From a virus (lineage: Duplodnaviria; Caudoviricetes), in the IMG/VR virus record IMGVR_UViG_3300037605_000079, positions 1 to 57,787 of that record: a stretch of 57,787 bases of DNA. One strand, written 5' to 3'. This document shows positions 9,533-57,787 of the stretch, one piece after another (the first letter of the stretch is position 1; each line of letters opens with the position of its first letter). Under the pieces are notes generated by a model. It had not been told where the DNA came from. It ran no database searches and was given only the letters and a program-made list of their open reading frames with translations. Made by a program: the position numbers and the translations under genes.

Positions 9533-9609
9533 GAGGGCAACCGCCGATAATAGAGGTTAATTATATAGATAGGCTTTATTTATGCTTTTGATCAAAAAAG
9601 TTAAACGAC

Positions 9610-9672
9610 CCACAACAAGTTTATAAAATTCATTTCGCTACGCTTCACGACGTTTTTATAAACGTGTTGTGC
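9610..9672 (+). repeat. attC-like hairpin site A1
   Basis: CCACAAC...GTTGTGC ends; inner stem GTTTATAAAA/TTTTATAAAC. Confidence 0.65.
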
Positions 9673-9678
9673 GCAATA

Positions 9679-9939
9679 CTAAATTGGCTCGAAATTATCA
9701 TTAAAGTATTGTTCAGCAACTAACCATTGGTCAAGGTGGTTTTTAGGGTTTCGAGCTATCATATCGCCAATTTTAGGGCTACCCGCTTTCTTATCTTCAT
9801 CGGATATTGAAACGCCAATTGTCGAATCAGGAGTTGAATGAACAATTATTTGTCCATAAACACCATATTCATTCACATCCATATCGGTAACTTCTCTTAA
9901 TTCGCCAATTTGCTTACGTCTATATTTGTTAAATGTCAT
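9679..9939 (-). CDS. Cassette-borne hypothetical phage protein (start probably ATG 9939)
   Basis: GSPKIGDMIARNPKNHLDQWLVAEQYF; lies exactly between two attC-like sites. Confidence 0.65.
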   Translation of the reverse strand: MTFNKYRRKQIGELREVTDMDVNEYGVYGQIIVHSTPDSTIGVSISDEDKKAGSPKIGDMIARNPKNHLDQWLVAEQYFNDNFEPI

Positions 9940-9952
9940 AATAAAGTACTGC

Positions 9953-10083
9953 ACACAACACAGTATATAAAACAGTGGGGTGCTGTGTGTCTTTTTAACC
10001 CACTTGCACTTAATTAATTTTATCAGCTTCGGATAGGTAAGTGCATCCTATCCCCACCGTTTCATATACTCGGCACGTTGTAG
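9953..10083 (+). repeat. attC-like hairpin site A2
   Basis: ACACAAC...GTTGTAG ends; stem AGTATATAAAACAGTGGGG/CCCCACCGTTTCATATACT whose A-C mismatches become G-T pairs on the bottom strand. Confidence 0.7.
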
Positions 10084-10087
10084 GAAA

Positions 10088-10348
10088 TTAATTATCTTCT
10101 TTGGGATGTCCGCATTTTTTGCAATATGATGAACCTTTAAAGTTTTCCATAAAATATTGACATTTTTTAGTTTTGCAATTAGGACAAATTTTTAAAGATT
10201 TATCATTTGAAGAATTGTTATTTTTAGACTCCTTATGCCATACAAACATGGTTATTAATTCTACCAATGAAAATGCAAAAGTATCAGTCTCATCTAGCCA
10301 ATCTTTTACTTCTTTTTCTAGCTCGTGGTATTGTTTTTTATCTTCCAT
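10088..10348 (-). CDS. Small Zn-finger protein
   Basis: CPNC...C...CKKCGH. Confidence 0.55.
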   Translation of the reverse strand: MEDKKQYHELEKEVKDWLDETDTFAFSLVELITMFVWHKESKNNNSSNDKSLKICPNCKTKKCQYFMENFKGSSYCKKCGHPKEDN

Positions 10349-11177: not shown

Positions 11178-12866
11178 CTATTCAAAGTCTTCTGAAGGTT
11201 GCATTAGGGACCATTTTAAAAGCTCGTAGTTTTGCCTATTTTCTGAAAATTCTTTATCCATTTCATTAACACGCTCACGCTTACGCTTTCTACTGATTAC
11301 TTCTTTTATTTGATTATTTATCATTTCTAGCATCGCAGATACGAGTTTGTCGCTTGCCAGATAGCTTACTTTTGCTTTTTCGCTTAATGTTGGTTTATAA
11401 TCCTTTTCTTTATCTACAAAAACGGCGGTAGCTCTAGCAACTAAATACTTTACATTTTCATCAGGATTTAACGTTTCAGGATTTACCGTTTCTTCACGTC
11501 CGTAATTTTCCAGAACTTCGTTTAATTCATCTTCACAAGTAGGGTTTATATTTAGGCAATCAACACCATGAAGAGCGCCGAATTTTCGGTATAAAGGCTG
11601 CTTATATATTTCCGGCAATACTTCATTAATTAAATCAAAGTTGTAAATTCCATCATATTCCTCGCGCTTTAAATTCTCCAATACCGCATAATCATAAATT
11701 GTCAATCCTTCGTCGTCCGTTGTGGCTATTTCTTGCACGCCTTTAGTTTTAGTTAATTTTACGGCGTGTTTCTTTAGTCCTATAGGTTCAAAATGATATT
11801 TTATACATTCCATAATACCAGATAAAAAACTTTCCGGATCCTCTGGGTTTACATAGTGCTTCCATTTTTGTACATCAGGCATCCACCGATCAAAGGAGCT
11901 TTTTTTCTTTTTTGAAAGAATGTATAAACTTTCAAGGCTTATCATTGTCGCGCCAGTAGGATCTAAACTTTCAATAAATAGCTTATCCGTTTCATTGGCG
12001 CTTCCATAGCCTTTTTTATTCCCTAAAGCTTTCGCTATCCCTTCTCGGTCGGCTTCGGTAAATTCAACGCGTGAAGCGTCAGCCGTTGCCGTTTGCATAT
12101 TCCAATGCTTTAGTATGTTTCGGTATAAATTATTTCTATTTTTATCGATTTTATACGCGATAACTAAAGCGTGTATGTGTACGTGCATACCGTTAGCGCC
12201 TTTAGTTACTTCTACTCCAAATTCTCCGCCAAATACCGATTCTTTCCAGAATTTCTTTTTACGTAAAAAATTAAATTCCTTCATTAATTCTTTAGCGTAA
12301 AACTTTTTACCTCTCCAGCCTTCTTCGTTGTGAGGAACTGTCAGTGTTAGATGAAAAAAACTATAATCTTTAGTCGGTAAATCTTGGTAGCCTGTTAGCG
12401 TTTTAATGCGTTTCGGAACGCCTTTTTTAATCATTCGACCAGTTGGTCCATATTCAGGAAAGGTTTTATAAACTGTATTTCCGTTTTCATCGGTTACCGT
12501 CTTACTTTCGTAGCTCGGCAAGTGCATAACGCCGCCTTTAAAGAAATTATAGTACTTTGATCGGACTACTCTTTGTCGTTCCTTATTACATACGGGGCAA
12601 AGCTTGTGCTTGCACGTTTGCGAGGCTATGTATTCCAAAGCTCCGTTTGTTTGGTATTCTCTAAATAAGCTATTATTTGCGCATTGTTGAAGCGAAGATC
12701 TAAGGTTAATTAAGTGCATCATGTTATCGTTGTGCAAATCGTCGCAAGCTGAAGAAATTAAATAGTCATCAATCTCTGTATGTAGCTTTTTCGCTTCTCG
12801 GGCTGCATTAGCAATTTTATAGAGTCTTAATCGATTGCTTTTTCTACGTTTTTTTAATTCGTCCAT
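11178..12866 (-). CDS. rep: HUH rolling-circle replication initiator (Rep_1/pC194-like, with insertions)
   Basis: Zn motif CKHKLCPVC, motif I FHLTLTVP, EFGVEVT, motif II HVHIHAL, motif III ECIKY, RKFGALHG. Confidence 0.85.
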   Translation of the reverse strand: MDELKKRRKSNRLRLYKIANAAREAKKLHTEIDDYLISSACDDLHNDNMMHLINLRSSLQQCANNSLFREYQTNGALEYIASQTCKHKLCPVCNKERQRVVRSKYYNFFKGGVMHLPSYESKTVTDENGNTVYKTFPEYGPTGRMIKKGVPKRIKTLTGYQDLPTKDYSFFHLTLTVPHNEEGWRGKKFYAKELMKEFNFLRKKKFWKESVFGGEFGVEVTKGANGMHVHIHALVIAYKIDKNRNNLYRNILKHWNMQTATADASRVEFTEADREGIAKALGNKKGYGSANETDKLFIESLDPTGATMISLESLYILSKKKKSSFDRWMPDVQKWKHYVNPEDPESFLSGIMECIKYHFEPIGLKKHAVKLTKTKGVQEIATTDDEGLTIYDYAVLENLKREEYDGIYNFDLINEVLPEIYKQPLYRKFGALHGVDCLNINPTCEDELNEVLENYGREETVNPETLNPDENVKYLVARATAVFVDKEKDYKPTLSEKAKVSYLASDKLVSAMLEMINNQIKEVISRKRKRERVNEMDKEFSENRQNYELLKWSLMQPSEDFE

Positions 12867-15346: not shown

Positions 15347-16048
15347 ATGAAAAATACACTTTTAGCCGTTATGTTTGCGGCCTTTTCGTTGACCGTAACC
15401 GCTCAATCGGAATTTAACAAACATCAAGTAAATTTTAATTTTGGAACATCAACGCCTACAGGAGACTTTGCGGATGATGACATTAATAATGAAAATTCAG
15501 GTTTTGCAGAATTTGGCGGCGCCTTTAATGTTGGATACGCTTATCGTTTTCATAAACTATTTGCAGGAACTGTAAATATATCGGGTAAAGCCTTCACCCT
15601 AGATCATGAGCTAATCAGATCAGAATTATTTAATCCTACAGCCATTCAGGGCAGTGATGCAGATAATTATTTACTTTCCTCCTTCACTATAGGCGCAAAA
15701 TTAATTGTAGGCGAAAAGCATCATTTTGTATTTAATCCATATATAGGAAGCGCGTTATTAACATTCCCGAATAATAATTACGCCGCTACCGACTTATTTA
15801 ATACAATTAGTTTTGAATTTAAAGAAGCTCAACTAACTAGCTTGATAACTGGATTTAATACTGGCGCCGAATTTAAACTTTCAGAATTATTAAGCCTTAG
15901 CGCTTTAATTAATTACGAAGTAGCTAATTTTGAAGACGAACAGACTGTTATTTATACCGAAAATGGAATTTCACAATCAACAACTGGCGATTTAAAACTT
16001 CCTTATAGTTCTTTTGGTGTTTTAGTTGGCTTGAATTTTAACTTCTAA
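15347..16048 (+). CDS. Outer-membrane beta-barrel protein (lysogenic conversion/exclusion candidate)
   Basis: Signal peptide, amphipathic strands, C-terminal VGLNFNF barrel signal; directly downstream of the repressor. Confidence 0.8.
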   Translation: MKNTLLAVMFAAFSLTVTAQSEFNKHQVNFNFGTSTPTGDFADDDINNENSGFAEFGGAFNVGYAYRFHKLFAGTVNISGKAFTLDHELIRSELFNPTAIQGSDADNYLLSSFTIGAKLIVGEKHHFVFNPYIGSALLTFPNNNYAATDLFNTISFEFKEAQLTSLITGFNTGAEFKLSELLSLSALINYEVANFEDEQTVIYTENGISQSTTGDLKLPYSSFGVLVGLNFNF

Positions 16049-17723
16049 TAAAACTGAAACAAAAATTGAAACAAAAAGCATTTATATCGATCGATTTTAG
16101 TTTTTTAACTAACTCAAAATAAGCCAATAAAAAATGCAAAAAAATCAAAGAAGAATCCCATCTTCCACCCTTAAGAGGACTAGAAGAAAATTCTAGTCCT
16201 CTTTTTAATTTTACAAGTTCACAATTCTTTATTTTACGGTCACTTACATCAAAAAATTGATTGATATAAGTGGTTCGAACTCTTCGATTATCCTTATCGA
16301 TCATTATCCCTTCAGGAAACATAGCCTTTAGCAGTCTTGACTTAGCTAAATTATCTGATGTAGAATAGATTGAATCAATATTCAACAGTGGTTCGAACTT
16401 TTCTGCAGTAAATGTATCAAAGAATGATAGATCCTGAGAAAGTTCATCATACTTAATTTTATACTCCAAATTCTGATTACTTAACTTATAAGTTAACTCA
16501 TTGTACTTCTTGCTGTCTATTTCATTATCTAGAAACTTCTGCTCGAGGTTACCAATTCGCTTTTCAACCCTTTTTAATTCAGCACTAACTGCAGAACGCT
16601 CTGCGAGGATCTGCATACGCTTCTCATTGGCCACATCCATAACCATTTCTGCCATCCCACTAGTATCGAAGCTTAGGTTACGTACTAATTCAGACACCAA
16701 GTTGTGAGCGAAATCAACATTGATATTCTTCCGATTCTTTCCGGTCGTATGGTAATAAGCGTATCTATTACCATTTCTAGATCTACTCTTACTCGCAGTC
16801 ATCTTCTTAGATTCTTCAGAAAATAGCAAGCCTTTAAGATAGTACTCCGATCGTTGCTGCTCATCAAGCGTCCATGATCTACCTCTATTTGCACCCGGAT
16901 TACCTTTCAAAATTTCTTGCATAAGATTATACTCACCCAAAGTAATGATGCCCTCATGCTTTCCTTTTACAATCTCTTCAGGCAAGAAGTTGTGCGCTTT
17001 ACAGTGCACATATCCTGCATACACTATGTGAGTAAATATGTTGTAGAAGACATTCTTCTTAATTTCCAATCTATCCTTAAATTCATGGAATAACTCTCCT
17101 CTATTCTCACCTGCAATAAAGCGATCAACGATCTGTCTTACCAATGGTCCTTTTACAGGATCAGGAACCATCAACTTCCGATCATTACCTGATCTTGTTT
17201 TTTCGCCTGTAGCCACTCGAGTATAACCTACAGGAGTATTGCTCGTGAAGTAGCCATTGCGCTGCGCCTGTGCTATACCATTTTTAGTACGCTGACTAAT
17301 GTTCAACGATTCAGAGTGAGCTGTAGTAGCGTACATTCCTAGGAAATTTGGCCACATGGATTGCGAGAAATCAATCAACTGATACACCGCATTCACTTCC
17401 ACTCCAAGCTCAGCGAATTGACGAACAGTAGCAAAATGCATCTCTGTATTACGGCCGAATCTGTCCCACTTCTCAATGAACAAGTAATCCACTTGAGATT
17501 GGCTGCCTTTTTGACTTCTGCAGACATCAAAGATCTTCTTCAGCTCGTTACGATCAAATGTAGTTCCAGAGATCACATCAAAGTAAGTACCTACTATTTC
17601 ACAACCCTGAGTGAAGGGGTGTGATTTAATTTGGTTGATTTGGTATTCGATGGAGTTTCCTGACTGTTGCTGTTCTTCGGTGCTACAACGAGCGTAGATG
17701 ATTGCGTTCTTTTTTCTTTCCAT
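16038..17723 (-). CDS. Large serine recombinase (integrase), C-terminus interrupted by att site at 16164-16170
   Basis: AIIYARCST..Q catalytic Ser, SG...DRNEL, KWDRFGRN, PVGY, YLKGLL, YAYY, coiled coil. Confidence 0.93.
   Translation of the reverse strand: MERKKNAIIYARCSTEEQQQSGNSIEYQINQIKSHPFTQGCEIVGTYFDVISGTTFDRNELKKIFDVCRSQKGSQSQVDYLFIEKWDRFGRNTEMHFATVRQFAELGVEVNAVYQLIDFSQSMWPNFLGMYATTAHSESLNISQRTKNGIAQAQRNGYFTSNTPVGYTRVATGEKTRSGNDRKLMVPDPVKGPLVRQIVDRFIAGENRGELFHEFKDRLEIKKNVFYNIFTHIVYAGYVHCKAHNFLPEEIVKGKHEGIITLGEYNLMQEILKGNPGANRGRSWTLDEQQRSEYYLKGLLFSEESKKMTASKSRSRNGNRYAYYHTTGKNRKNINVDFAHNLVSELVRNLSFDTSGMAEMVMDVANEKRMQILAERSAVSAELKRVEKRIGNLEQKFLDNEIDSKKYNELTYKLSNQNLEYKIKYDELSQDLSFFDTFTAEKFEPLLNIDSIYSTSDNLAKSRLLKAMFPEGIMIDKDNRRVRTTYINQFFDVSDRKIKNCELVKLKRGLEFSSSPLKGGRWDSSLIFLHFLLAYFELVKKLKSIDINAFCFNFCFSFIRS
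16153..16170 (+). repeat. 3' fragment of a tRNA (likely tRNA-His); right att of element A and left att of element B
   Basis: GAATCCCATCTTCCACCC matches the T-loop 3' side plus acceptor stem with the CCACCC end typical of tRNA-His. Tandem TGAAACAAAAA repeats at 16055 and 16067 resemble integrase arm sites. Confidence 0.65.
16174..16206 (+). terminator. Phage-supplied terminator just after the tRNA 3' end
   Basis: 12-bp stem AGAGGACTAGAA/TTCTAGTCCTCT followed by a T-run. Confidence 0.65.
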
Positions 17724-22613: not shown

Positions 22614-22807
22614 TAATATTCCTCTTTCTTTTTGTTGTCAGTAATTTCACTATCAGCTGCATCAGCCATCTGTCGCAACCTGTTTATTCGCTGCTTGATT
22701 TCTTCTTTGTCAGCACCTACTTTTCGCATTTCCTTCTTCAGCTCATTAATCATGTGTATGTGCGATAAGTAGGCTTCCTTTAATAGGGGTGTGGATGTTA
22801 TGATCAT
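22613..22807 (-). CDS. Hypothetical protein
   Basis: Coupled to the primase start (TAATG). Confidence 0.5.
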   Translation of the reverse strand: MIITSTPLLKEAYLSHIHMINELKKEMRKVGADKEEIKQRINRLRQMADAADSEITDNKKKEEY

Positions 22808-33744: not shown

Positions 33745-34532
33745 TATGTTCCTGTAAATCCTGATAGTGTACCGTTAACTTGATCTAAACCTTCATCCAG
33801 AAGAACTGTATCAGATCCTGAGCCATTAAAACGATAGTAACGTCTTAATTTATCTGCTTGATAATTACTTGCAAAATCACCGTTACCCTCATTATATAAG
33901 TTAACGATTTCCTCATCTGTTAGAATTCCATACCATATAGCCACCTCGTTTACTTTTGCTTTACTGTAATTATTGGCAGTAGTCATAGAACCAATTTCAA
34001 AGAAATTCCCAACACTTCCAATAGAAGTGGATGGTTCAGGTGCTATATAATCATAACCAATGTATAGTCCGTTAATGTATAATTTTAGTCTTGTTTGGAA
34101 TGGCTCATAGCCATCAAACAATATAACTAGATGTGCCCACTCATCGTAGTTATTAAATCGAGTATTATTATAAGTTTCATAGCTACCAACACCGGAACCT
34201 GTTTTTCTATTCAAAATTAGCAATCCATTACTGTTAGCTGAATTTCTAACTAACCCAAATATATTACTAGGGCTCTCACGCATTCCAATCTGAAAATCGC
34301 CACCAATAAGTGGTATATTTACCCACATTGACATTGATAGGGTTGTTCTACCATTGGCCAAAGTACTATTAGGAAAAGTAACCTTATCATTTATACCATC
34401 AAAGCTTAATGCGTTACCAAAAGAGAATGCAGCAGAGGGTTTCTCCCAAACCACATTATTTCCATGGTGAATTTTAAGTAATTGCTTACCGTTGCGCTCG
34501 GCACCTAAAAATTTCTTTCCGTTTAATTCCAT
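33729..34532 (-). CDS. LamG-domain receptor-binding protein
   Basis: ALSFDGINDKV, SMSMWV, WAHLVI, KLYING, NEVAIW, IVNLYN, YYRFN. Confidence 0.85.
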   Translation of the reverse strand: MELNGKKFLGAERNGKQLLKIHHGNNVVWEKPSAAFSFGNALSFDGINDKVTFPNSTLANGRTTLSMSMWVNIPLIGGDFQIGMRESPSNIFGLVRNSANSNGLLILNRKTGSGVGSYETYNNTRFNNYDEWAHLVILFDGYEPFQTRLKLYINGLYIGYDYIAPEPSTSIGSVGNFFEIGSMTTANNYSKAKVNEVAIWYGILTDEEIVNLYNEGNGDFASNYQADKLRRYYRFNGSGSDTVLLDEGLDQVNGTLSGFTGTYWVAH

Positions 34533-41907: not shown

Positions 41908-42249
41908 TTAGTAATGAATTGTTTTGCCGTTAATCTTAATTATCTGGCGAATCTTAACTTTCTTAATATCTCCATTTTGCAATTCAAGATTCCTAGTTCT
42001 ATTCTTGTAATGTTCAGGGTTCTTTTCTGTTGCTCTAGGAGATTGAACAGCTTTTAAGATAGAAGCAGTAGAGGAAGCCTTATTCTTAGACCTAGACTTA
42101 ATTACATTTTTATAAGTAACAAGCCTACCGCCAGTCTTACTGTTAACTTGCAGCGTTCTAAATGTAATATCAAATGGAATAGGCAGCCCTGAATCATTGA
42201 CTTTATCAATAACTTGCATTGCTTGCTGAAATGATATTGAATTTTCCAT
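41908..42249 (-). CDS. Hypothetical phage protein upstream of portal
   Basis: NPEHYKNRTRN motif; ATG 4 nt after the late promoter. Confidence 0.6.
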   Translation of the reverse strand: MENSISFQQAMQVIDKVNDSGLPIPFDITFRTLQVNSKTGGRLVTYKNVIKSRSKNKASSTASILKAVQSPRATEKNPEHYKNRTRNLELQNGDIKKVKIRQIIKINGKTIHY

Positions 42250-52611: not shown

Positions 52612-53224
52612 GTTCCACCGTTCCACAAATTAAACAACTCAATAGATATCAATCAATTAGATAGAATAAGTCCTGTTGGAAAAAGTGGAACAATTTAAAA
52701 AATGTTGGAACGTAAAAAGCTCGTTCCACATTTTCCAACAAAAACAAGGCGCAAAAAAACACAAGACACCGTTTTATATATTTGATTATTAAATATATAT
52801 ATTAATAGAATTAAAAAATGTGGAACCGTGGAACGGTGGAACCGAATTTTGCACCCTTTTTCTATAATTGTATTTTATTTCGGGGTTGTGGGGTTTTATT
52901 TTTTTGTGAATTTTTAAAATTTGCAGTAGAAATGATTCATAGAATTACCGGTTCAGGCCCTATTTTAGTTACTTAAAAAGTTCAACGGTTCACCGATTGG
53001 ATAACTCTTTAGTTGTTAAAAGGATGTAAAATGTATGAATGTTGAACTAGTGGAACAAAAAAAGCACCTGATCGGTGTGACCAGGTGCTTTTCATTAGGT
53101 GGTTATTTCTATTTCTTTAGGTCTTGCTTCGTTACTAACTCGCAAGTAATGCCTTTTGATCTCAAATGTTTGTAATGGCTCAGTGAAGTAGTTCGTATCA
53201 TATTAGTTTTTTATAGCGTTCCAC
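52612..53224. repeat. GTGGAAC/GTTCCAC iteron cluster, putative replication origin
   Basis: Exact copies at 52612, 52620, 52685, 52723, 52820, 52828, 52836, 53050 and 53218 around an AT-rich tract (about 52770-52820). Confidence 0.65.
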
Positions 53225-53477
53225 CAAAATACTACAGTTCCAAATCCGATTCCACTTTTACTGGCCAAGGTGTGCAAGAAGTCAATGTCAAATTTCTTTT
53301 TATTTCTTATTGCTGTTTTTACTGCTGCTGCTGTCATATCTCGTTGTTTTAATGTTAGTTAAAGATAAACAATACTACTTCTTAATTCAAGTGAATTAGA
53401 GATAATTATCAATAAAAAACTCACCACAACAGCCGCTAAATAACATGGCCTAAAGGCACACGTTCCTTAGCTTGGTG

Positions 53478-53675
53478 TTAGCGTTCATTTGCCAACGCAC
53501 AACATTTCTTATATTTCTTGCCACCACCACATGGGCATGGCTCATTACGTCCTATTTTCTTTTCTTCTCTTTTGTAGGTATATCGGTTTCTTTCTGGTGG
53601 AAAAATGTCTTTTGCCATCATCGCCATACCCATTGCAACATCTAAGTATTTCATATCATTTGTTTTGCACCGCAA
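53478..53675 (-). CDS. Cassette-borne SEC-C motif protein (start probably ATG 53654)
   Basis: [20 protein letters not shown]. Confidence 0.8.
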
Positions 53676-53861
53676 ACGCTCAAAAACGAAACGCTAACAA
53701 GCGGTATAGTTAATAAAGCCGTAATTAACATTAGTTCTTCGATTTAGCGATATAACACGGCTTTACTAAACCATACCGCCAATCCGTTGTAGCACATTAA
53801 AACGATGCTACAACACCAGCTATAAGTAATGCGGGTGTTGTAGCTCGTAGCAAGGTTAGTG

Positions 53862-54164
53862 CTATGCTTCTTTTTCTTCCCTCGCTTTATTCATGTACTG
53901 AAAACACAATTGGTTTGCCACATGGTTAAATTCAAGGTGGTTTTTACTATCACCAGTCAGGTTGTTAAATACGTGGGCAGGGGCTACGTTTGCTAAGGCG
54001 TGCATAAAGTGGGTAAGGTTGTCGCCTTCCATTAACTCTTCTTGGTCAACTGCCCACTCACTGTCTTCTTCAAACATAGAACCAATTGCGCCTGTAATCA
54101 TTGCTGCGTATTGCAGATACTTTTCGTTTTTACTCATTTTATTTGTGTTTATGCCCACGCTCAA
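53862..54164 (-). CDS. Hypothetical protein inside the loop of an attC-like site (start probably ATG 54137)
   Basis: Coding-like 91-100 aa ORF. Confidence 0.6.
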   Translation of the reverse strand: MSVGINTNKMSKNEKYLQYAAMITGAIGSMFEEDSEWAVDQEELMEGDNLTHFMHALANVAPAHVFNNLTGDSKNHLEFNHVANQLCFQYMNKAREEKEA

Positions 54165-54257
54165 AAAAGAAGCGGGAGCGGTTAATACTCGTATTTAGTT
54201 TAGTGCTGTAATGCCCGCACTACTCATAGCTGTGTTCCGTTGTAGGCAATAAGCCTA

Positions 54258-54515
54258 CTAATCTTCGTCAGAAACCCAATCAACCACCGATTGAAGATCG
54301 CTTAAATCTTCTACATGCAAAGTGATAAAGTCCGTGTTAGGGTTAAGCCTGCAAATCTTAACTTCACACCATGCGTCTATAAGTACATGAAAGTGTTTTG
54401 TTCTCATGTTCCAATCTGTTCCTCTTGGGTCGCCAGTTCCGTCATTTTCTTCAACGAATCCCATTTCAATCAACTTTTCAGGAGTTGCAACCTTCAATAA
54501 TTCTGTGTTTACCAT
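54258..54515 (-). CDS. Cassette-borne hypothetical protein
   Basis: TPEKLIEMGF motif common in small phage proteins; between attC-like sites. Confidence 0.6.
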   Translation of the reverse strand: MVNTELLKVATPEKLIEMGFVEENDGTGDPRGTDWNMRTKHFHVLIDAWCEVKICRLNPNTDFITLHVEDLSDLQSVVDWVSDED

Positions 54516-54674
54516 TATTTCAAATTTTCGTTTTCAAATCCGTAGGCTTAAAACCTACAACAATACCTATACGCCATACAAGTACAGGCGTATAGCCGAG
54601 CTCGTTGTAGTGAATTACACAGCCCTCATAAGATCTAGAATGTCTTGGTAAATGGTTCGAACTTGGTTTGATTG

Positions 54675-54681
54675 TCCACCC
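54675..54681 (+). repeat. Right att core of element B (TCCACCC)
   Basis: Identical to 16164-16170; followed by a host-type terminator. Confidence 0.7.
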
Positions 54682-54689
54682 AAAAGATT

Positions 54690-54719
54690 AAAGCCTCGTC
54701 TATCGACGAGGCTTTTTTT
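54690..54719 (+). terminator. Host terminator, probably the original tRNA terminator
   Basis: AAAGCCTCGTC-TATC-GACGAGGCTTTTTTT. Confidence 0.8.
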
Positions 54720-54857
54720 GTGCTTCCAATTCAAGTTTACTTGAAAGTTGGAAAAACAATGATAACTTCCGAAATAAATTCGGGACTAGGCTACCGGTTA
54801 ATTAAAGCATCCTCTCTAAACAAAAAAAGCACCTTAATTTCTTAAGATGCTTTAATG

Positions 54858-54942
54858 TACCCGGGGCGGGACTTGAACCCGCACGATCGCAATGATCACA
54901 GGATTTTAAGTCCTGCGTGTCTACCAGTTTCACCACCCGGGC
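54858..54942 (-). tRNA. tRNA-Leu (TAA)
   Basis: GCCCGGGTGGTGAAACTGGTAGACACGCAGGACTTAAAATCCTG...GGTTCAAGTCCCGCCCCGGGTA; long variable arm. Confidence 0.95.
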
Positions 54943-54985
54943 AGACATAAAAAAATAATTCCTAAGTAATACTTAGGAATTATTG

Positions 54986-55058
<73 letters not shown>

Positions 55059-55156
55059 TTAATGTTTAAACAACATCTATGAACGCAGGAGCAATAACTC
55101 CCTATTTGTTGTGGACGACAAAAGTAATAATTTTTTCAGTTTCACAACCAAAAAAA

Positions 55157-57787
55157 TTACTTTTTTACACCGACCATTTTTTTTATTTCATTCAACTTAA
55201 AAAGCGCCTCTACTGGAGTCAATGTATTTATATCAATACCAATCAATTCCTCTTTAATCTGATTCAAAACCGGATCATCCAATTGAAAAAAGCTCAATTG
55301 ATAATCATCTGAGTTAGCCGGTGCTTTTACCACATTTTCAATAGATGCATCAGAAGAATGCGACTTTTCAAGCTGCAATAACATCTCATTAGCCCGCCGA
55401 ATTAGTTTTGGAGGCATTCCCGCCATCTGCGCGACATGAATACCGAAGCTATGCTCACTTCCTCCGGCAACGAGTTTCCGCATGAAAATAATCTTGTTGT
55501 TGATCTCCTTAACGGAAACATGGTAGTTTTTCACCCGCTTAAACTGTTTGGCCATTTCATTTAGCTCATGGTAATGTGTAGCGAAAAGGGTTTTAGGTTT
55601 AGCGCTCTTTGCCTCATGAAGGTATTCTGCAATCGCCCAAGCAATTGATATCCCATCATAAGTACTTGTTCCTCTTCCTATCTCATCGAGCAATATAAGC
55701 GAACGATCCGATATATTATTCAAAATACTGGCTGTTTCATTCATTTCTACCATAAAAGTAGACTCACCTAAAGAAATATTATCAGAAGCTCCTACACGAG
55801 TGAATATCTTATCAACTAATCCAATTTTTGCATGCTTCGCCGGAACGAAACAACCCACCTGAGCCATCAATACAATTAATGCAGTTTGCCTTAATAAAGC
55901 TGACTTACCCGACATGTTTGGCCCAGTAATCATCATGATTTGCTGGGTAGCATCATCCAGGTAAACATCATTAGCAATATACTCCTCTCCTAAAGGTAGT
56001 TGTTTTTCAATCACCGGGTGTCTTCCAAGGGATATTTCTAACGTTTTTGACTCATCAAGCTGCGGCTTAGTATAATTATTTTTAATCGCAATACGAGAAA
56101 AAGCCAACAAACAGTCTAGTCGAGCGAGCAAATTGGCGTTGAGTTGGATGGGAGCAATATAGTCAGCTAATGCCAAAATCAAATCATTATATAACCTCGA
56201 CTCAAGAGCTGCTATTTTGTCTTCTGCACCTAATATTTTACTTTCATACTCTTTTAATTCTTCGGTAATATATCGCTCAGCATTCACCAACGTTTGCTTG
56301 CGGTGCCAGCTCTCTGGTACTTTATCTTTTTGGGCATTTCTAACTTCTATGTAGTAACCAAAGACATTGTTAAAGGCAATTTTCAAACTTGAAATACCTG
56401 TAGACTCAGACTCTCTTTGCTGTATTTGCAGCAAACTGTCTTTCCCATTTTTCTTTAAGGTTCTCAATTCGTCTAACTCAGCATTTACTCCTGTCGCGAT
56501 TACATCTCCTTTAGATAAAGCCACTGGTGGATCGGTCACTAACTCCTTTTGGATACGTTCTTGTATTGTCGCACAAGGGTTGAGCTGCTCTCCAATTTTT
56601 TTTAAGGAAGTATTTTTAGAAGCTAAGCAAAGAGATTGAATGGGTTTGATTTCATTCAAGGCCCTGTAAAGTTGAGCTACCTCCCGCGGATTAATTCTAC
56701 CCACTGCTGCTCGTGAAATCAACCGCTCTAAATCGCCAATCTTTTCTAAGCTTGCTTTTAACAACTGAGCGGCCCGCTCATCTTGAATAAATGCGGCAAC
56801 TGCCTCCAAACGTTCTTCAATGGGCTGAAGATCTTTTAGTGGCAATGCTATCCACCTCTTTAACATTCTAGACCCCATAGGGGAAATGGTATCATCAATT
56901 ACATCTATGAGTGTCTTCGCTTTTTCATGAGGTGAATGGATAAGCTCTAAGTTTCTAATCGTAAAACGATCTAACCAAACATATCGGTCTTCTTCTATTC
57001 GAGCAATAGTAGCAACATGCTGAAGCTTATTGTGCTGTGTTTCCGCTAAATAATGGAGAATCGCTCCCGCAGCAACAATCCCATTTTTAAAATCCTCAAT
57101 ACCATAACCTTTCAACGATTTAGTTTGAAAATGCTTAAGCAAGATATCTGATGCGAATTCTGAAGTAAAGACCCAGTCCTCTAATGCATAGGTATAATAT
57201 GATTTACCAAAACTTTCTTCGAAAGTTTCTTTAAACTTTTTTTGAAAAACAATTTCTGATGGAGAAAAACTTTGGAGTAGTTTATCAATATACTCGATAG
57301 AGCCTTCAGCTACTAAGTATTCTCCAGTTGAAACGTCAATAAAGGAAACCCCAACACTTTTTTTGGAGAAATGAACAGATGCAAGAAAATTATTCGACTT
57401 ATGATCTAATACCTTGTCGCTATAAGAAATTCCAGGAGTCACTAGCTCAGTAACTCCACGCTTTACAATCGTTTTGGTCTGTTTGGGGTCTTCTAATTGA
57501 TCACAAATCGCAACACGCTGTCCTGCTCGAACAAGCTTTGGTAAATATGTCTCTAAAGAGTGATGCGGAAAACCGGCCAATTCTATTTCATTAGCTGAAC
57601 CATTATGACGCTTTGTTAAGACAATACCCAAAATGCCGGCCGCCTTCACCGCATCATTACCAAAGGTTTCATAGAAATCACCGACTCTAAAAAGCAATAA
57701 GGCGTCAGGATACTTCCCTTTAATCTGATGATATTGCTTCATCAATGGGGTTTCTTTGGGTTTGGATGTAGTCTTTTTTGCGCTCAC
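55157..57787 (-). CDS. mutS: DNA mismatch repair protein MutS
   Basis: [47 protein letters not shown]. Confidence 0.98.

Follow-up and report, generated by a model that had tools for sequence, protein, structure and literature searches.

The array and its place in the prophage

The window analysed here is the entire IMG/VR record IMGVR_UViG_3300037605_000079, a provirus fragment of 57,787 nt with 36.6% G+C. Near its right end, at 53421-54613, the plus strand alternates local hairpins of the form AAC..GTT with units of the form GTT..AAC, arranged around three small open reading frames (ORFs) on the minus strand. The two ends of each GTT..AAC unit are mutually reverse-complementary, and the content of a unit is either one small minus-strand ORF or nothing. 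From its sequence, this region is probably an integron-type cassette array without an integrase, similar to a CALIN, carried by the prophage of a Flavobacteriia-like host. A CALIN is a cluster of attC sites that lacks an integron integrase. The initial annotation had described the region in similar terms; its underlying observation is confirmed, and its reading of the array is supported in part. The features are as follows, the sequences of H1, H2 and H5 being given as read on the minus strand.

53421-53430, plus strand: outer left box TCACCACAAC, which pairs at 9/10 positions with GTTGTAGTGA
53428-53479, minus strand: hairpin site H1, AAC-ACCAA-stem-GGCT-GTT
53477-53788, minus strand: cassette 1, made up of GTTAGCGTT, ORF1, AACGCTAAC and H2, with boxes paired 10/10; the cassette with a copy in X2 (see below)
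53477-53698: the GTT..AAC unit that encloses ORF1, with boxes complementary at 10/10 positions
53478-53654, minus strand: ORF1, 58 aa from ATG, or 65 aa from a TTG at 53675
53696-53788, minus strand: hairpin site H2, CTACAAC-GGATT-long imperfect stem-T-GTTAGCG
53786-53814, minus strand: empty unit, GTTGTAGCA-11 nt-TGCTACAAC, without an ORF, boxes 9/9
53812-53839, minus strand: hairpin site H3, a short AAC..GTT hairpin with 14-nt arms that are 93% complementary
53837-54241, minus strand: ORF2 unit, from the GTT at 53837-53839 to the GTT at 54239-54241
53862-54140, minus strand: ORF2, 92 aa from ATG, with a weak match to phrog_37916 (E 6.4e-5)
about 54165-54241: H4, a degenerate fifth junction with a GTT end, in which AAT replaces AAC and a strong local hairpin is missing
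54239-54561, minus strand: ORF3 cassette, with 20-nt inverted boxes and ORF3 at 54258-54515 (85 aa)
54559-54606, minus strand: hairpin site H5, CTACAAC-GAGCTC-stem-TATT-GTTGTAGG
54604-54613, plus strand: outer right box GTTGTAGTGA, which pairs at 9/10 positions with 53421-53430
54653-54675, no strand: right-hand boundary between prophage and host (attR), located within the 3' end of a tRNA gene
9605-10088, minus strand: a second such locus in the early region, with a single unit, in which sites at 9948-10088 and 9605-9677 flank an ORF at 9679-9939

All three ORFs of the array lie on the minus strand, as had been stated in the initial annotation. ORF1 carries a SEC-C zinc motif (Pfam SEC-C, E 2.1e-8), and its final codons and stop are encoded by the AACGCTAAC box. 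ORF2 sits inside 28-nt inverted arms (53817-53844 and 54205-54232, 79% complementary), with H4 as its upstream junction. Homologues of ORF2 with 47-48% identity are found in two phages that have no such sites (L003 and L004), so that ORF2 is not tied to the sites. Homologues of ORF3 with 70-71% identity lie between sites of a related type, TAAC-GTTTT, in two viral contigs (L001 and L002), and the homology stops at the borders of the ORF. When the array of L002 was compared with cultured phages, the matches were to two uncultured records.

The empty unit is not confined to the window. Its 29-mer is identical in L272, where it has the same position ahead of an H2-type site and is accompanied by further units with complementary boxes of their own. 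The 11-nt filler is also found with other boxes around it in L273 and L054. On the sense strand this filler is TCGTTTTAATG, which occurs twice in the window (53795-53805 and 33824-33834) and also in L272, L273 and L054. It appears in two roles, as the loop of the shortest TAAC-GTTTT sites (many sites of 47-49 nt) and as the sole content of empty units in several unrelated contigs.

The minus-strand phage genes, among them primase, S49 protease and tail genes, extend from the holin (252-674) and lysozyme (2500-2949) genes to the array. To the right of the prophage are tRNA-Leu, tRNA-Gly and mutS. A record from another sample and study, X2 record 7 (102,627 nt), is identical to 54675-57787 with 0 differences, and continues leftward into a 30-nt loose end containing GGTTCGAATCC, which was read by eye as the T-arm of a tRNA. 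This record shows the empty host attachment site, which places the prophage end at approximately 54653-54675, within the 3' end of a tRNA gene. The outer box of the array is thus 40-70 nt inside the right end of the prophage. The complete tRNA genes that ARAGORN detects in the window are just two, tRNA-Leu and tRNA-Gly; both lie to the right of the junction, which implies that attL is beyond the left end of the window. A search for att repeats between the right end and the remainder of the window gave none of note.

A single recombinase was found in the window, of the large serine type (16038-17723), and 36 kb separate it from the array. The lysis genes reach down to position 252, so that this serine integrase is internal to the prophage. 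The proposal that excision brings the array immediately downstream of this integrase is therefore not supported, the integrase being internal and 36 kb away, with attL to the left of the window. Close relatives of the phage were not found: neither its 166-aa protein nor its S49 protein led to any locus when viral and genome contigs were searched, and a DNA search of cultured phages with the window gave short matches only.

Sites, units and breakpoints

Four of the junctions, H1, H2, H3 and H5, have R boxes at the foot of the site, with an AAC end and a GTT start, as attC sites have. All four, together with every sequence quoted for them in the initial annotation, were found where that annotation had placed them. 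An attC site is expected to be an imperfect hairpin with unpaired spacers, 50-150 nt long; the sites here are imperfect hairpins of 28-93 nt with unpaired spacers of 5-6 and 1-4 nt. A single folding strand is also expected, and the minus strand is the more stable in three of the four AAC..GTT sites. The predicted energies for minus and plus strands are -10.2 and -8.6 kcal/mol for H1, -19.8 and -17.0 for H2, and -13.6 and -12.0 for H5, the exception being H3 (-16.1 and -16.7). The earlier claim that pairing of the minus (bottom) strand is favoured consequently holds for H1, H2 and H5 and fails for H3. Three of the sites fold beyond shuffled sequences, with z values on plus and minus strands of -3.3/-4.1 (H2), -4.8/-4.8 (H3) and -2.9/-3.5 (H5). 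A relaxed hairpin scan with wobbles, which gave 65 sites in the window and 53-74 in shuffles, was dropped.

The start of each unit had been described as complementary to the box just before its own downstream AAC, and this is borne out. The box GTTAGCGTT (53477-53485) faces AACGCTAAC (53690-53698), and in extended form, as TGTTAGCGTT and AACGCTAACA, the two pair at 10/10 positions. GTTGTAGCA (53786-53794) and TGCTACAAC (53806-53814) are complementary at 9/9 positions, and the 20-nt boxes GTTGTAGGCAATAAGCCTAC (54239-54258) and GTAGGCTTAAAACCTACAAC (54542-54561) are 85% complementary. Two exact 9-mer GTT..AAC inverted pairs are observed against a shuffle mean of 0.094; two or more occur in 8 of 2000 shuffles and in just one of 90 other windows of the contig. 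The sequences GTTGTAG and CTACAAC occur 18 times in the window, where 4.68 are expected and a count as high is seen in 0 of 100 shuffles; six of these occurrences are in 53786-54610. The outermost boxes of the array, TCACCACAAC and GTTGTAGTGA, also pair, at 9/10 positions. This would be expected if the whole series arose inside one site, and it agrees with the original suggestion that the cassettes were stacked in one resident site, the entire array being nested between two boxes that still match.

Two records, from runs X2 and X4, show where the units end; these runs belong to samples and studies other than that of X1, which may be the source of the window. X2 record 6 (25,663 nt, with chromosome-like depth) carries 53477-53789 with 0 differences (100% identity). 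The block consists of box, ORF1, box and H2, from GTT to GTT, and its flanks are unlike the window on either side. The unlike flanks start at both GTTs, which is where the initial annotation would have the breakpoints. X4 record 17 matches 53787-54241 with 15 differences and one gap; the match starts at 53787, the first T after the G of the GTT at 53786-53788, and is preceded by 404 unlike bases. The claim that the cassettes have their ends at GTT is upheld by the breakpoints in both records. Two further probes returned little: a 30-mer of ORF1 was found in 0 metagenome contigs, and a 20-mer across the box and H1 was found in 0 viral contigs and in one metagenome contig, apparently as a chance match in coding sequence.

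The site and its box recur with other genes. A 19-mer made up of the end of H2 and the GTTAGCGTT box is present in 21 viral contigs, and in 20 of the 21 loci an ORF stands behind the same GTTAGCGTT box and 5' leader (the remaining contig, L279, being apparently a chance match). The H2-type hairpin (..AAC GGNTG GCGGTATGG..CTATACCGC TT GTTAGCG) lies upstream in 16 of the 21 loci and a second hairpin type in three, while AACGCTAAC follows 196-431 nt downstream in 17. Among the ORFs of the 20 contigs there are at least 13 different N-termini. The C-terminal end ALANER is shared by ORF1 of the window and by unrelated ORFs in eight other loci, since a conserved GCGTTGGCAAATGAACGCTAAC tail provides both the final codons and the TAA stop; another reading frame stops at a TGA within the same tail. 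In the window the conserved 3' tail occupies 53478-53500 and has stops in two frames, and unrelated ORFs end in ALANER or in ..VGK or ..AK. A 10-nt direct repeat, G(A/T)GCGTTGGC, is present in both the 5' leader and the 3' tail of ORF1-type cassettes.

The second hairpin type is the one found in Maribacter phage Panino (PP540027.1), a phage that gave 0 matches to the window proteins at E 1e-5. Panino has the same box and leader (about 35 nt) around an unrelated ORF, and the same tail and H1-type hairpin (about 85 nt, at about 90% identity). The H1-type hairpin occurs in Panino twice, at 22734-22781 (plus strand) and 42082-42129 (minus strand), about 19 kb apart, and each copy is followed by the same GTTATCAATAGTCAACCGAAGG.

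A sister family of sites, with the pattern TAAC-GTTTT-GC..GC-T-GTTA, is present in at least 119 viral stretches. Of the 123 viral matches listed, 91 have a stem of 8 bp or more. In the set used for stem analysis (136 sites, 108 of them unique) the stems vary with compensation, and G.G or C.A mismatches recur at positions 4 and 5 of the stem. At positions 8-14 there are 139 G.T wobbles and five A.C mismatches, which points to a single folding strand. The box after one site and the box before the next are complementary at a mean of 5.47 of 10 positions in 32 adjacent pairs. Random pairs give 3.84 and boxes within the same site 3.81, and 0 of 10,000 permutations reach 5.47.

Two contigs of this family, L079 and L082, are 100% identical save for a 748-nt insert bearing an ORF, with GGTAAC|GT at both junctions. 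Twenty-six further mosaic breakpoints were found, of which four are exactly at TAAC, one is within 10 nt of it, and the remainder are ordinary gene borders. A crossover at G|TT, which is 5'-AA|C on the bottom strand and is expected of attC, is accordingly documented by X2 record 6, X4 record 17 and the pair L079/L082. Units end at AAC/GTT triplets, they are found in other genomic contexts, and one type of site goes with many ORFs.

It should be considered whether the shell (hairpin, leader and tail) simply provides homology, by which general or phage recombination shuffles the ORFs, as it does for the regulatory stem-loop modules called PeSLs in T4-type phages. Such shuffling is published (PMC2839356, PMC4122927; for these and all other papers cited here, what is attributed to them refers to the portions of the text that were available). 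The resemblance is real: PeSLs are repeated stem-loop modules beside small variable ORFs, mostly of unknown function, in plastic regions, and mark the borders of insertions and deletions. The shell seen here is long and conserved, about 160 nt on the 5' side and about 25 nt on the 3' side of the ORF; the 10-nt direct repeat flanks the variable ORF; and many of the viral loci encode an Erf-type annealing protein and NinG lookalikes, these cluster names (Erf, NinG, primase-polymerase and HNH) being sequence readings by eye and not library results. However, homologous exchange predicts breakpoints anywhere in the shell, and they are observed at AAC/GTT even where nothing else is shared. Nor would it yield covariation between the boxes at the start and end of a unit, and the compensatory changes in the stems and the mismatches at stem positions 4 and 5 are left unexplained. 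Moreover, PeSLs are promoter and terminator motifs moved by homologous recombination, in contrast to the fixed-triplet breakpoints and co-varying boxes seen here, where no terminator-like feature was found on the sense strand. We therefore regard this explanation as improbable.

Probable kinship with integrons and the orientation of the genes

A site model, R1, was built solely from phage sites. In the window it places the two early-region sites on the minus strand (13.0 bits for 9948-10088 and 19.8 bits for 9605-9677), and the box after the first of these pairs with the box before the second at 10/12 positions. H5 scores 15.9 bits (E 0.12), again on the minus strand.

Related sites are also found outside viruses. 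The TAAC-GTTTT pattern occurs in genome contigs of many phyla, archaea among them, and a stem is present in 48 of the 124 matches listed. A Dehalococcoidia contig has six sites, with R1 scores from 59.2 to 22.2 bits, beside an IntI-like ORF that matches TIGR02249 in two pieces (127.7 and 108.6 bits). One nearly invariant site, TAACGTTTTGCGGATAAAAGAAG..CTTTTATCCGCTGTTA, occurs in the genome contigs L155, L156, L159, L162, L188, L206 and others, which are labelled as ANME/Methanoperedenaceae archaea, Desulfobacteraceae, Dehalococcoidia, Cloacimonadota, Hippea and others. A single site common to such distant taxa points to very wide transfer of one attC type.

A further group of known elements needs to be discussed at this point. 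Non-autonomous single-strand elements of the IS200/IS605 or REP/RAYT kind also have strand-specific hairpins, and their HUH nuclease cuts next to a tetranucleotide at the hairpin foot, where TAAC or CAAC stands here in the manner of a cleavage site. The GTAG-containing boxes are reminiscent of GTAG-tagged REPs (PMC3733652), and the window encodes a Rep_1-like protein at 11178-12866, with an E value of 4.7e-8 that is exactly at the cut-off. Against this, the transposase family Y1_Tnp (PF01797) gave 0 matches in five records, three of them being the window, Panino and a phage that is 98% complete. The ends of IS200/IS605 elements are two different subterminal hairpins, not one hairpin per unit, which also counts against them. 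Finally, the sites follow one another head to tail, their boxes are complementary, and they belong to the same family as sites beside an IntI-like gene. An origin from HUH elements is therefore very unlikely.

The relation between site and gene is not the same in viruses and in cells. The ORFs of viral loci share the strand of R1 (114/129 downstream flanks and 113/125 upstream flanks), and an ATG stands 20-69 nt after the GTT in 95 of 136 viral sites. In cellular contigs the ORFs are antisense to R1, in 23/23 and 22/26 flanks in one set of genome loci and in 19/23 and 16/21 in another; the two sets were divided by record titles and hairpin type, and the first includes two contigs whose labels name bacteria of candidate phyla. 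The Dehalococcoidia array is antisense in the same way. The R1 orientation folds, is antisense to cellular ORFs and has its crossover at the 5' AAC, and for these reasons we take it to be the attC bottom strand. On that reading, the ORF of a phage cassette would be encoded by the bottom strand and preceded by its site. The window agrees with this: in its cassettes the hairpin is upstream of the ORF, and each of the three small genes lies on the strand that folds, here the minus strand. The initial annotation overlooked this position of the genes, which is the opposite of that in ordinary integron cassettes. With this arrangement, RNA transcribed from the phage operon reads through the array.

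Phage arrays of such cassettes have been published previously. Qi et al. (2023; PMC9892861) describe 3 integrons, 1 In0 and 17 CALINs in 10,705 phage genomes, and report that five of six phage attC sites recombine with IntI1. One of the recombining sites is from Polaribacter phage P12002L, whose CALIN carries methylase genes. R1 finds four places in this phage (23.4-16.2 bits, placed by the model alone), just upstream of methylase or Mom genes and on the same strand as them, so that P12002L shares the viral orientation with the window. Given these published examples, the array would belong to a known kind, and from its sequence we would class it as a phage CALIN, in a variant form with the ORFs on the folding strand. 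The likeness extends to small ORFs arrayed between AAC..hairpin..GTT sites in tailed phages without intI, to exchange at G|TT, and to the host, P12002L infecting a flavobacterium and having matches to the phage-derived R1 beside its methylase genes. The differences are that the available text gives 17 CALINs per 10,705 genomes, whereas exact-motif scans here give at least 119 and a further 21 viral stretches; that the boxes of the window are mostly CAAC/GTTG; and that its cassettes are coded on the folding strand, each ORF following its site. Literature searches for anything closer turned up no account of arrays of this kind in phages of Bacteroidota, nor of the way in which they are oriented.

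Compared with integron cassettes and attC sites in general, the array has in common one imperfect hairpin per unit, R boxes that end in AAC and start with GTT, a box at the start of the unit that complements the box before its own hairpin, a crossover at the triplet, a conserved site with variable cargo, and sister-family sites beside an IntI-like gene. It differs in that intI, attI and Pc, which stand beside the array in a complete integron, are not found in the window; in that the ORFs are on the bottom (folding) strand and not on the top; and in that the window-type shell reaches into the ORF and provides stops in two frames.

Several results weigh against reading the array as integron-type. 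The canonical cassette, a top-strand ORF with attC downstream, is found neither in the window nor in the viral loci, and the asymmetric spacers of 5-6 and 1-4 nt differ from the 5 and 4 nt seen in two Vibrio-type sites of the Vibrio phage integron MK672802. R1 gives no significant match on MK672802, which is a real integron, and this integron therefore provides no confirmation of the R1 strand; its two sites were read by eye. On the sites of the window R1 is weak (19.8, 15.9 and 13.0 bits) and misses H1, H2 and H3 altogether, and it finds nothing in Panino at E 1. H1 (z -0.5/-0.8) and H4 (z -1.2/-1.3, plus and minus strands) fold no better than shuffles, and inverted pairs with one mismatch are not significant (3 against 1.7, with 117 of 500 shuffles reaching 3). 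The X2 and X4 records are assembled contigs and not reads, and the end of the X4 match at the GTT at 54239-54241 is also the end of the X4 contig. The IntI-like matches are below the 265-bit cut-off of the family, and one has an internal TAG. In the window PF00589 has 0 matches, and a Pfam sweep of 48 further ORFs found no recombinase family. Integrons are moreover rare in Bacteroidetes genomes (PMC9024848). Finally, the folding strand is also the transcribed sense strand (114/129 and 113/125 flanks, as above), which makes a role at the RNA level possible.

This last point leads to an alternative in which the hairpins are RNA elements of the phage operon (for processing, stabilisation, translation control or weak termination), the boxes join the ends of cistrons by pairing, and the breakpoints come about through microhomology. 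The excess of G.T over A.C in the stems (139 against 5) would fit an RNA, as would the T.G wobble that recurs in the long-range pairing of boxes, the position of the ATG at 20-69 nt past the GTT, and an extra small wobble hairpin in the leader just before the ATG of ORF1 and of ORF2. The sites were also searched as RNA elements. With Rfam at a permissive threshold, the array region and five related loci gave tRNAs only, and none of H1-H5 has a terminator-like feature on the sense strand, so that terminators were rejected as an identity for the hairpins. Sigma-70-like promoter matches number 2 against 4.9 expected, in a scan that excludes the promoters of this phylum. Against the RNA explanation, the same site family is antisense to the ORFs in cellular contigs, in the proportions given above, so that its conservation is independent of its presence in mRNA. 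Identical units with wholly different flanks that begin exactly at GTT, and a clean 748-nt insertion between 100% identical flanks, are also not accounted for. We consider the RNA explanation unlikely. Each of the three alternatives covers part of the evidence, and none of them explains the fixed breakpoints, the covariation of the boxes and the kinship with sites beside an IntI-like gene together.

Recombinases and a possible route of exchange

The window has four AAC..GTT sites in 1.2 kb and no intI, the sites being judged by their anatomy and R1 only. The description of the array as lacking an integrase is thus correct, as far as tyrosine recombinases in the window are concerned. Of ten records searched with PF00589, one has a match, and this is Panino. 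Small tyrosine recombinases of Xer/IntI-like type, 264-289 aa long and without the IntI insertion, are found 0.3-3.7 kb from sites in 10 of about 141 partial viral loci (L266:2648-3481, L271:3132-3947, L054:4615-5448, L014:6324-7193, L110:4633-5463, plus five more). Five of them were scored, giving 175-206 bits with the XerA/integron-integrase model and 145-165 bits with TIGR02249, the alignment to the latter being in two pieces that skip the IntI-specific part. In L054 and L058, a conserved block containing the recombinase gene begins exactly at TAAC. In three Bacteroidota metagenome-assembled genomes there are IntI-like ORFs with scores that sum to about 200-214 bits; no R1 sites were found within the 2-3.5 kb examined around these loci.

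On the basis of these observations, a mechanism may be proposed. Read along the minus strand, a unit consists of AA|C, a spacer of 5-6 nt, an imperfect hairpin, a spacer of 1-4 nt, GTT and its box, a leader, the ORF, the complementary box, and AA|. The coding strand would fold when single-stranded, as may happen while it serves as the lagging-strand template, and would then be cut at 5'-AA|C by an IntI/Xer-type tyrosine recombinase that the host or a co-resident element provides. Whole units could leave as circles and re-enter any resident site, and four units may have been stacked into one original site in this way.

A wider reading is possible, and is put forward tentatively. Bacteroidota phages may carry a widespread integron-like platform of their own for shuffling genes, distinct from bacterial integrons, in which the coding strand is the recombinogenic bottom strand, the site is 5' of the ORF, and the shell donates the leader and the stops (the ALANER tail). 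Exchange at 5'-AA|C would be carried out by the small Xer/IntI-like recombinases without the IntI insertion, or otherwise by host enzymes. The array of the window, with its attP-proximal position, would then be an example of such a platform.

Of the devices that capture and reshuffle single genes, integron cassettes are the best known, and phages have only lately been shown to hold a few such arrays. The window and the related loci suggest that these arrays are common in phages of flavobacteria and their relatives, that units are exchanged between unrelated phages, and that their build is reversed, with the genes on the folding strand. Phages would thereby have a dedicated means of exchanging small accessory genes, in a phylum that is poor in integrons. 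The analysis provides a concrete set of sites and of candidate recombinases.

It is worth adding three features of the window that lie outside the array. An inverted GTTCCAC/GTGGAAC cluster is found at 52612-52842, in non-coding sequence upstream of an 84-aa ORF, with examples such as GTTCCACCG..CGGTGGAAC and GTTCCACAT..ATGTGGAAC; it could be an operator-like set of repeats. The 562-aa protein at 11178-12866 (minus strand), which matches Rep_1 (rolling-circle replication initiator), is encoded next to an SSB gene, at a distance of about 1 kb from the early-region cassette. Between the prophage end and tRNA-Leu, in host sequence, 54687-54830 (minus strand) has a sub-threshold Rfam match to the Bacteroides sRNA BTnc231 (30.3 bits, against a gathering score of 80.4), which adjoins a strong bidirectional terminator at 54690-54715.

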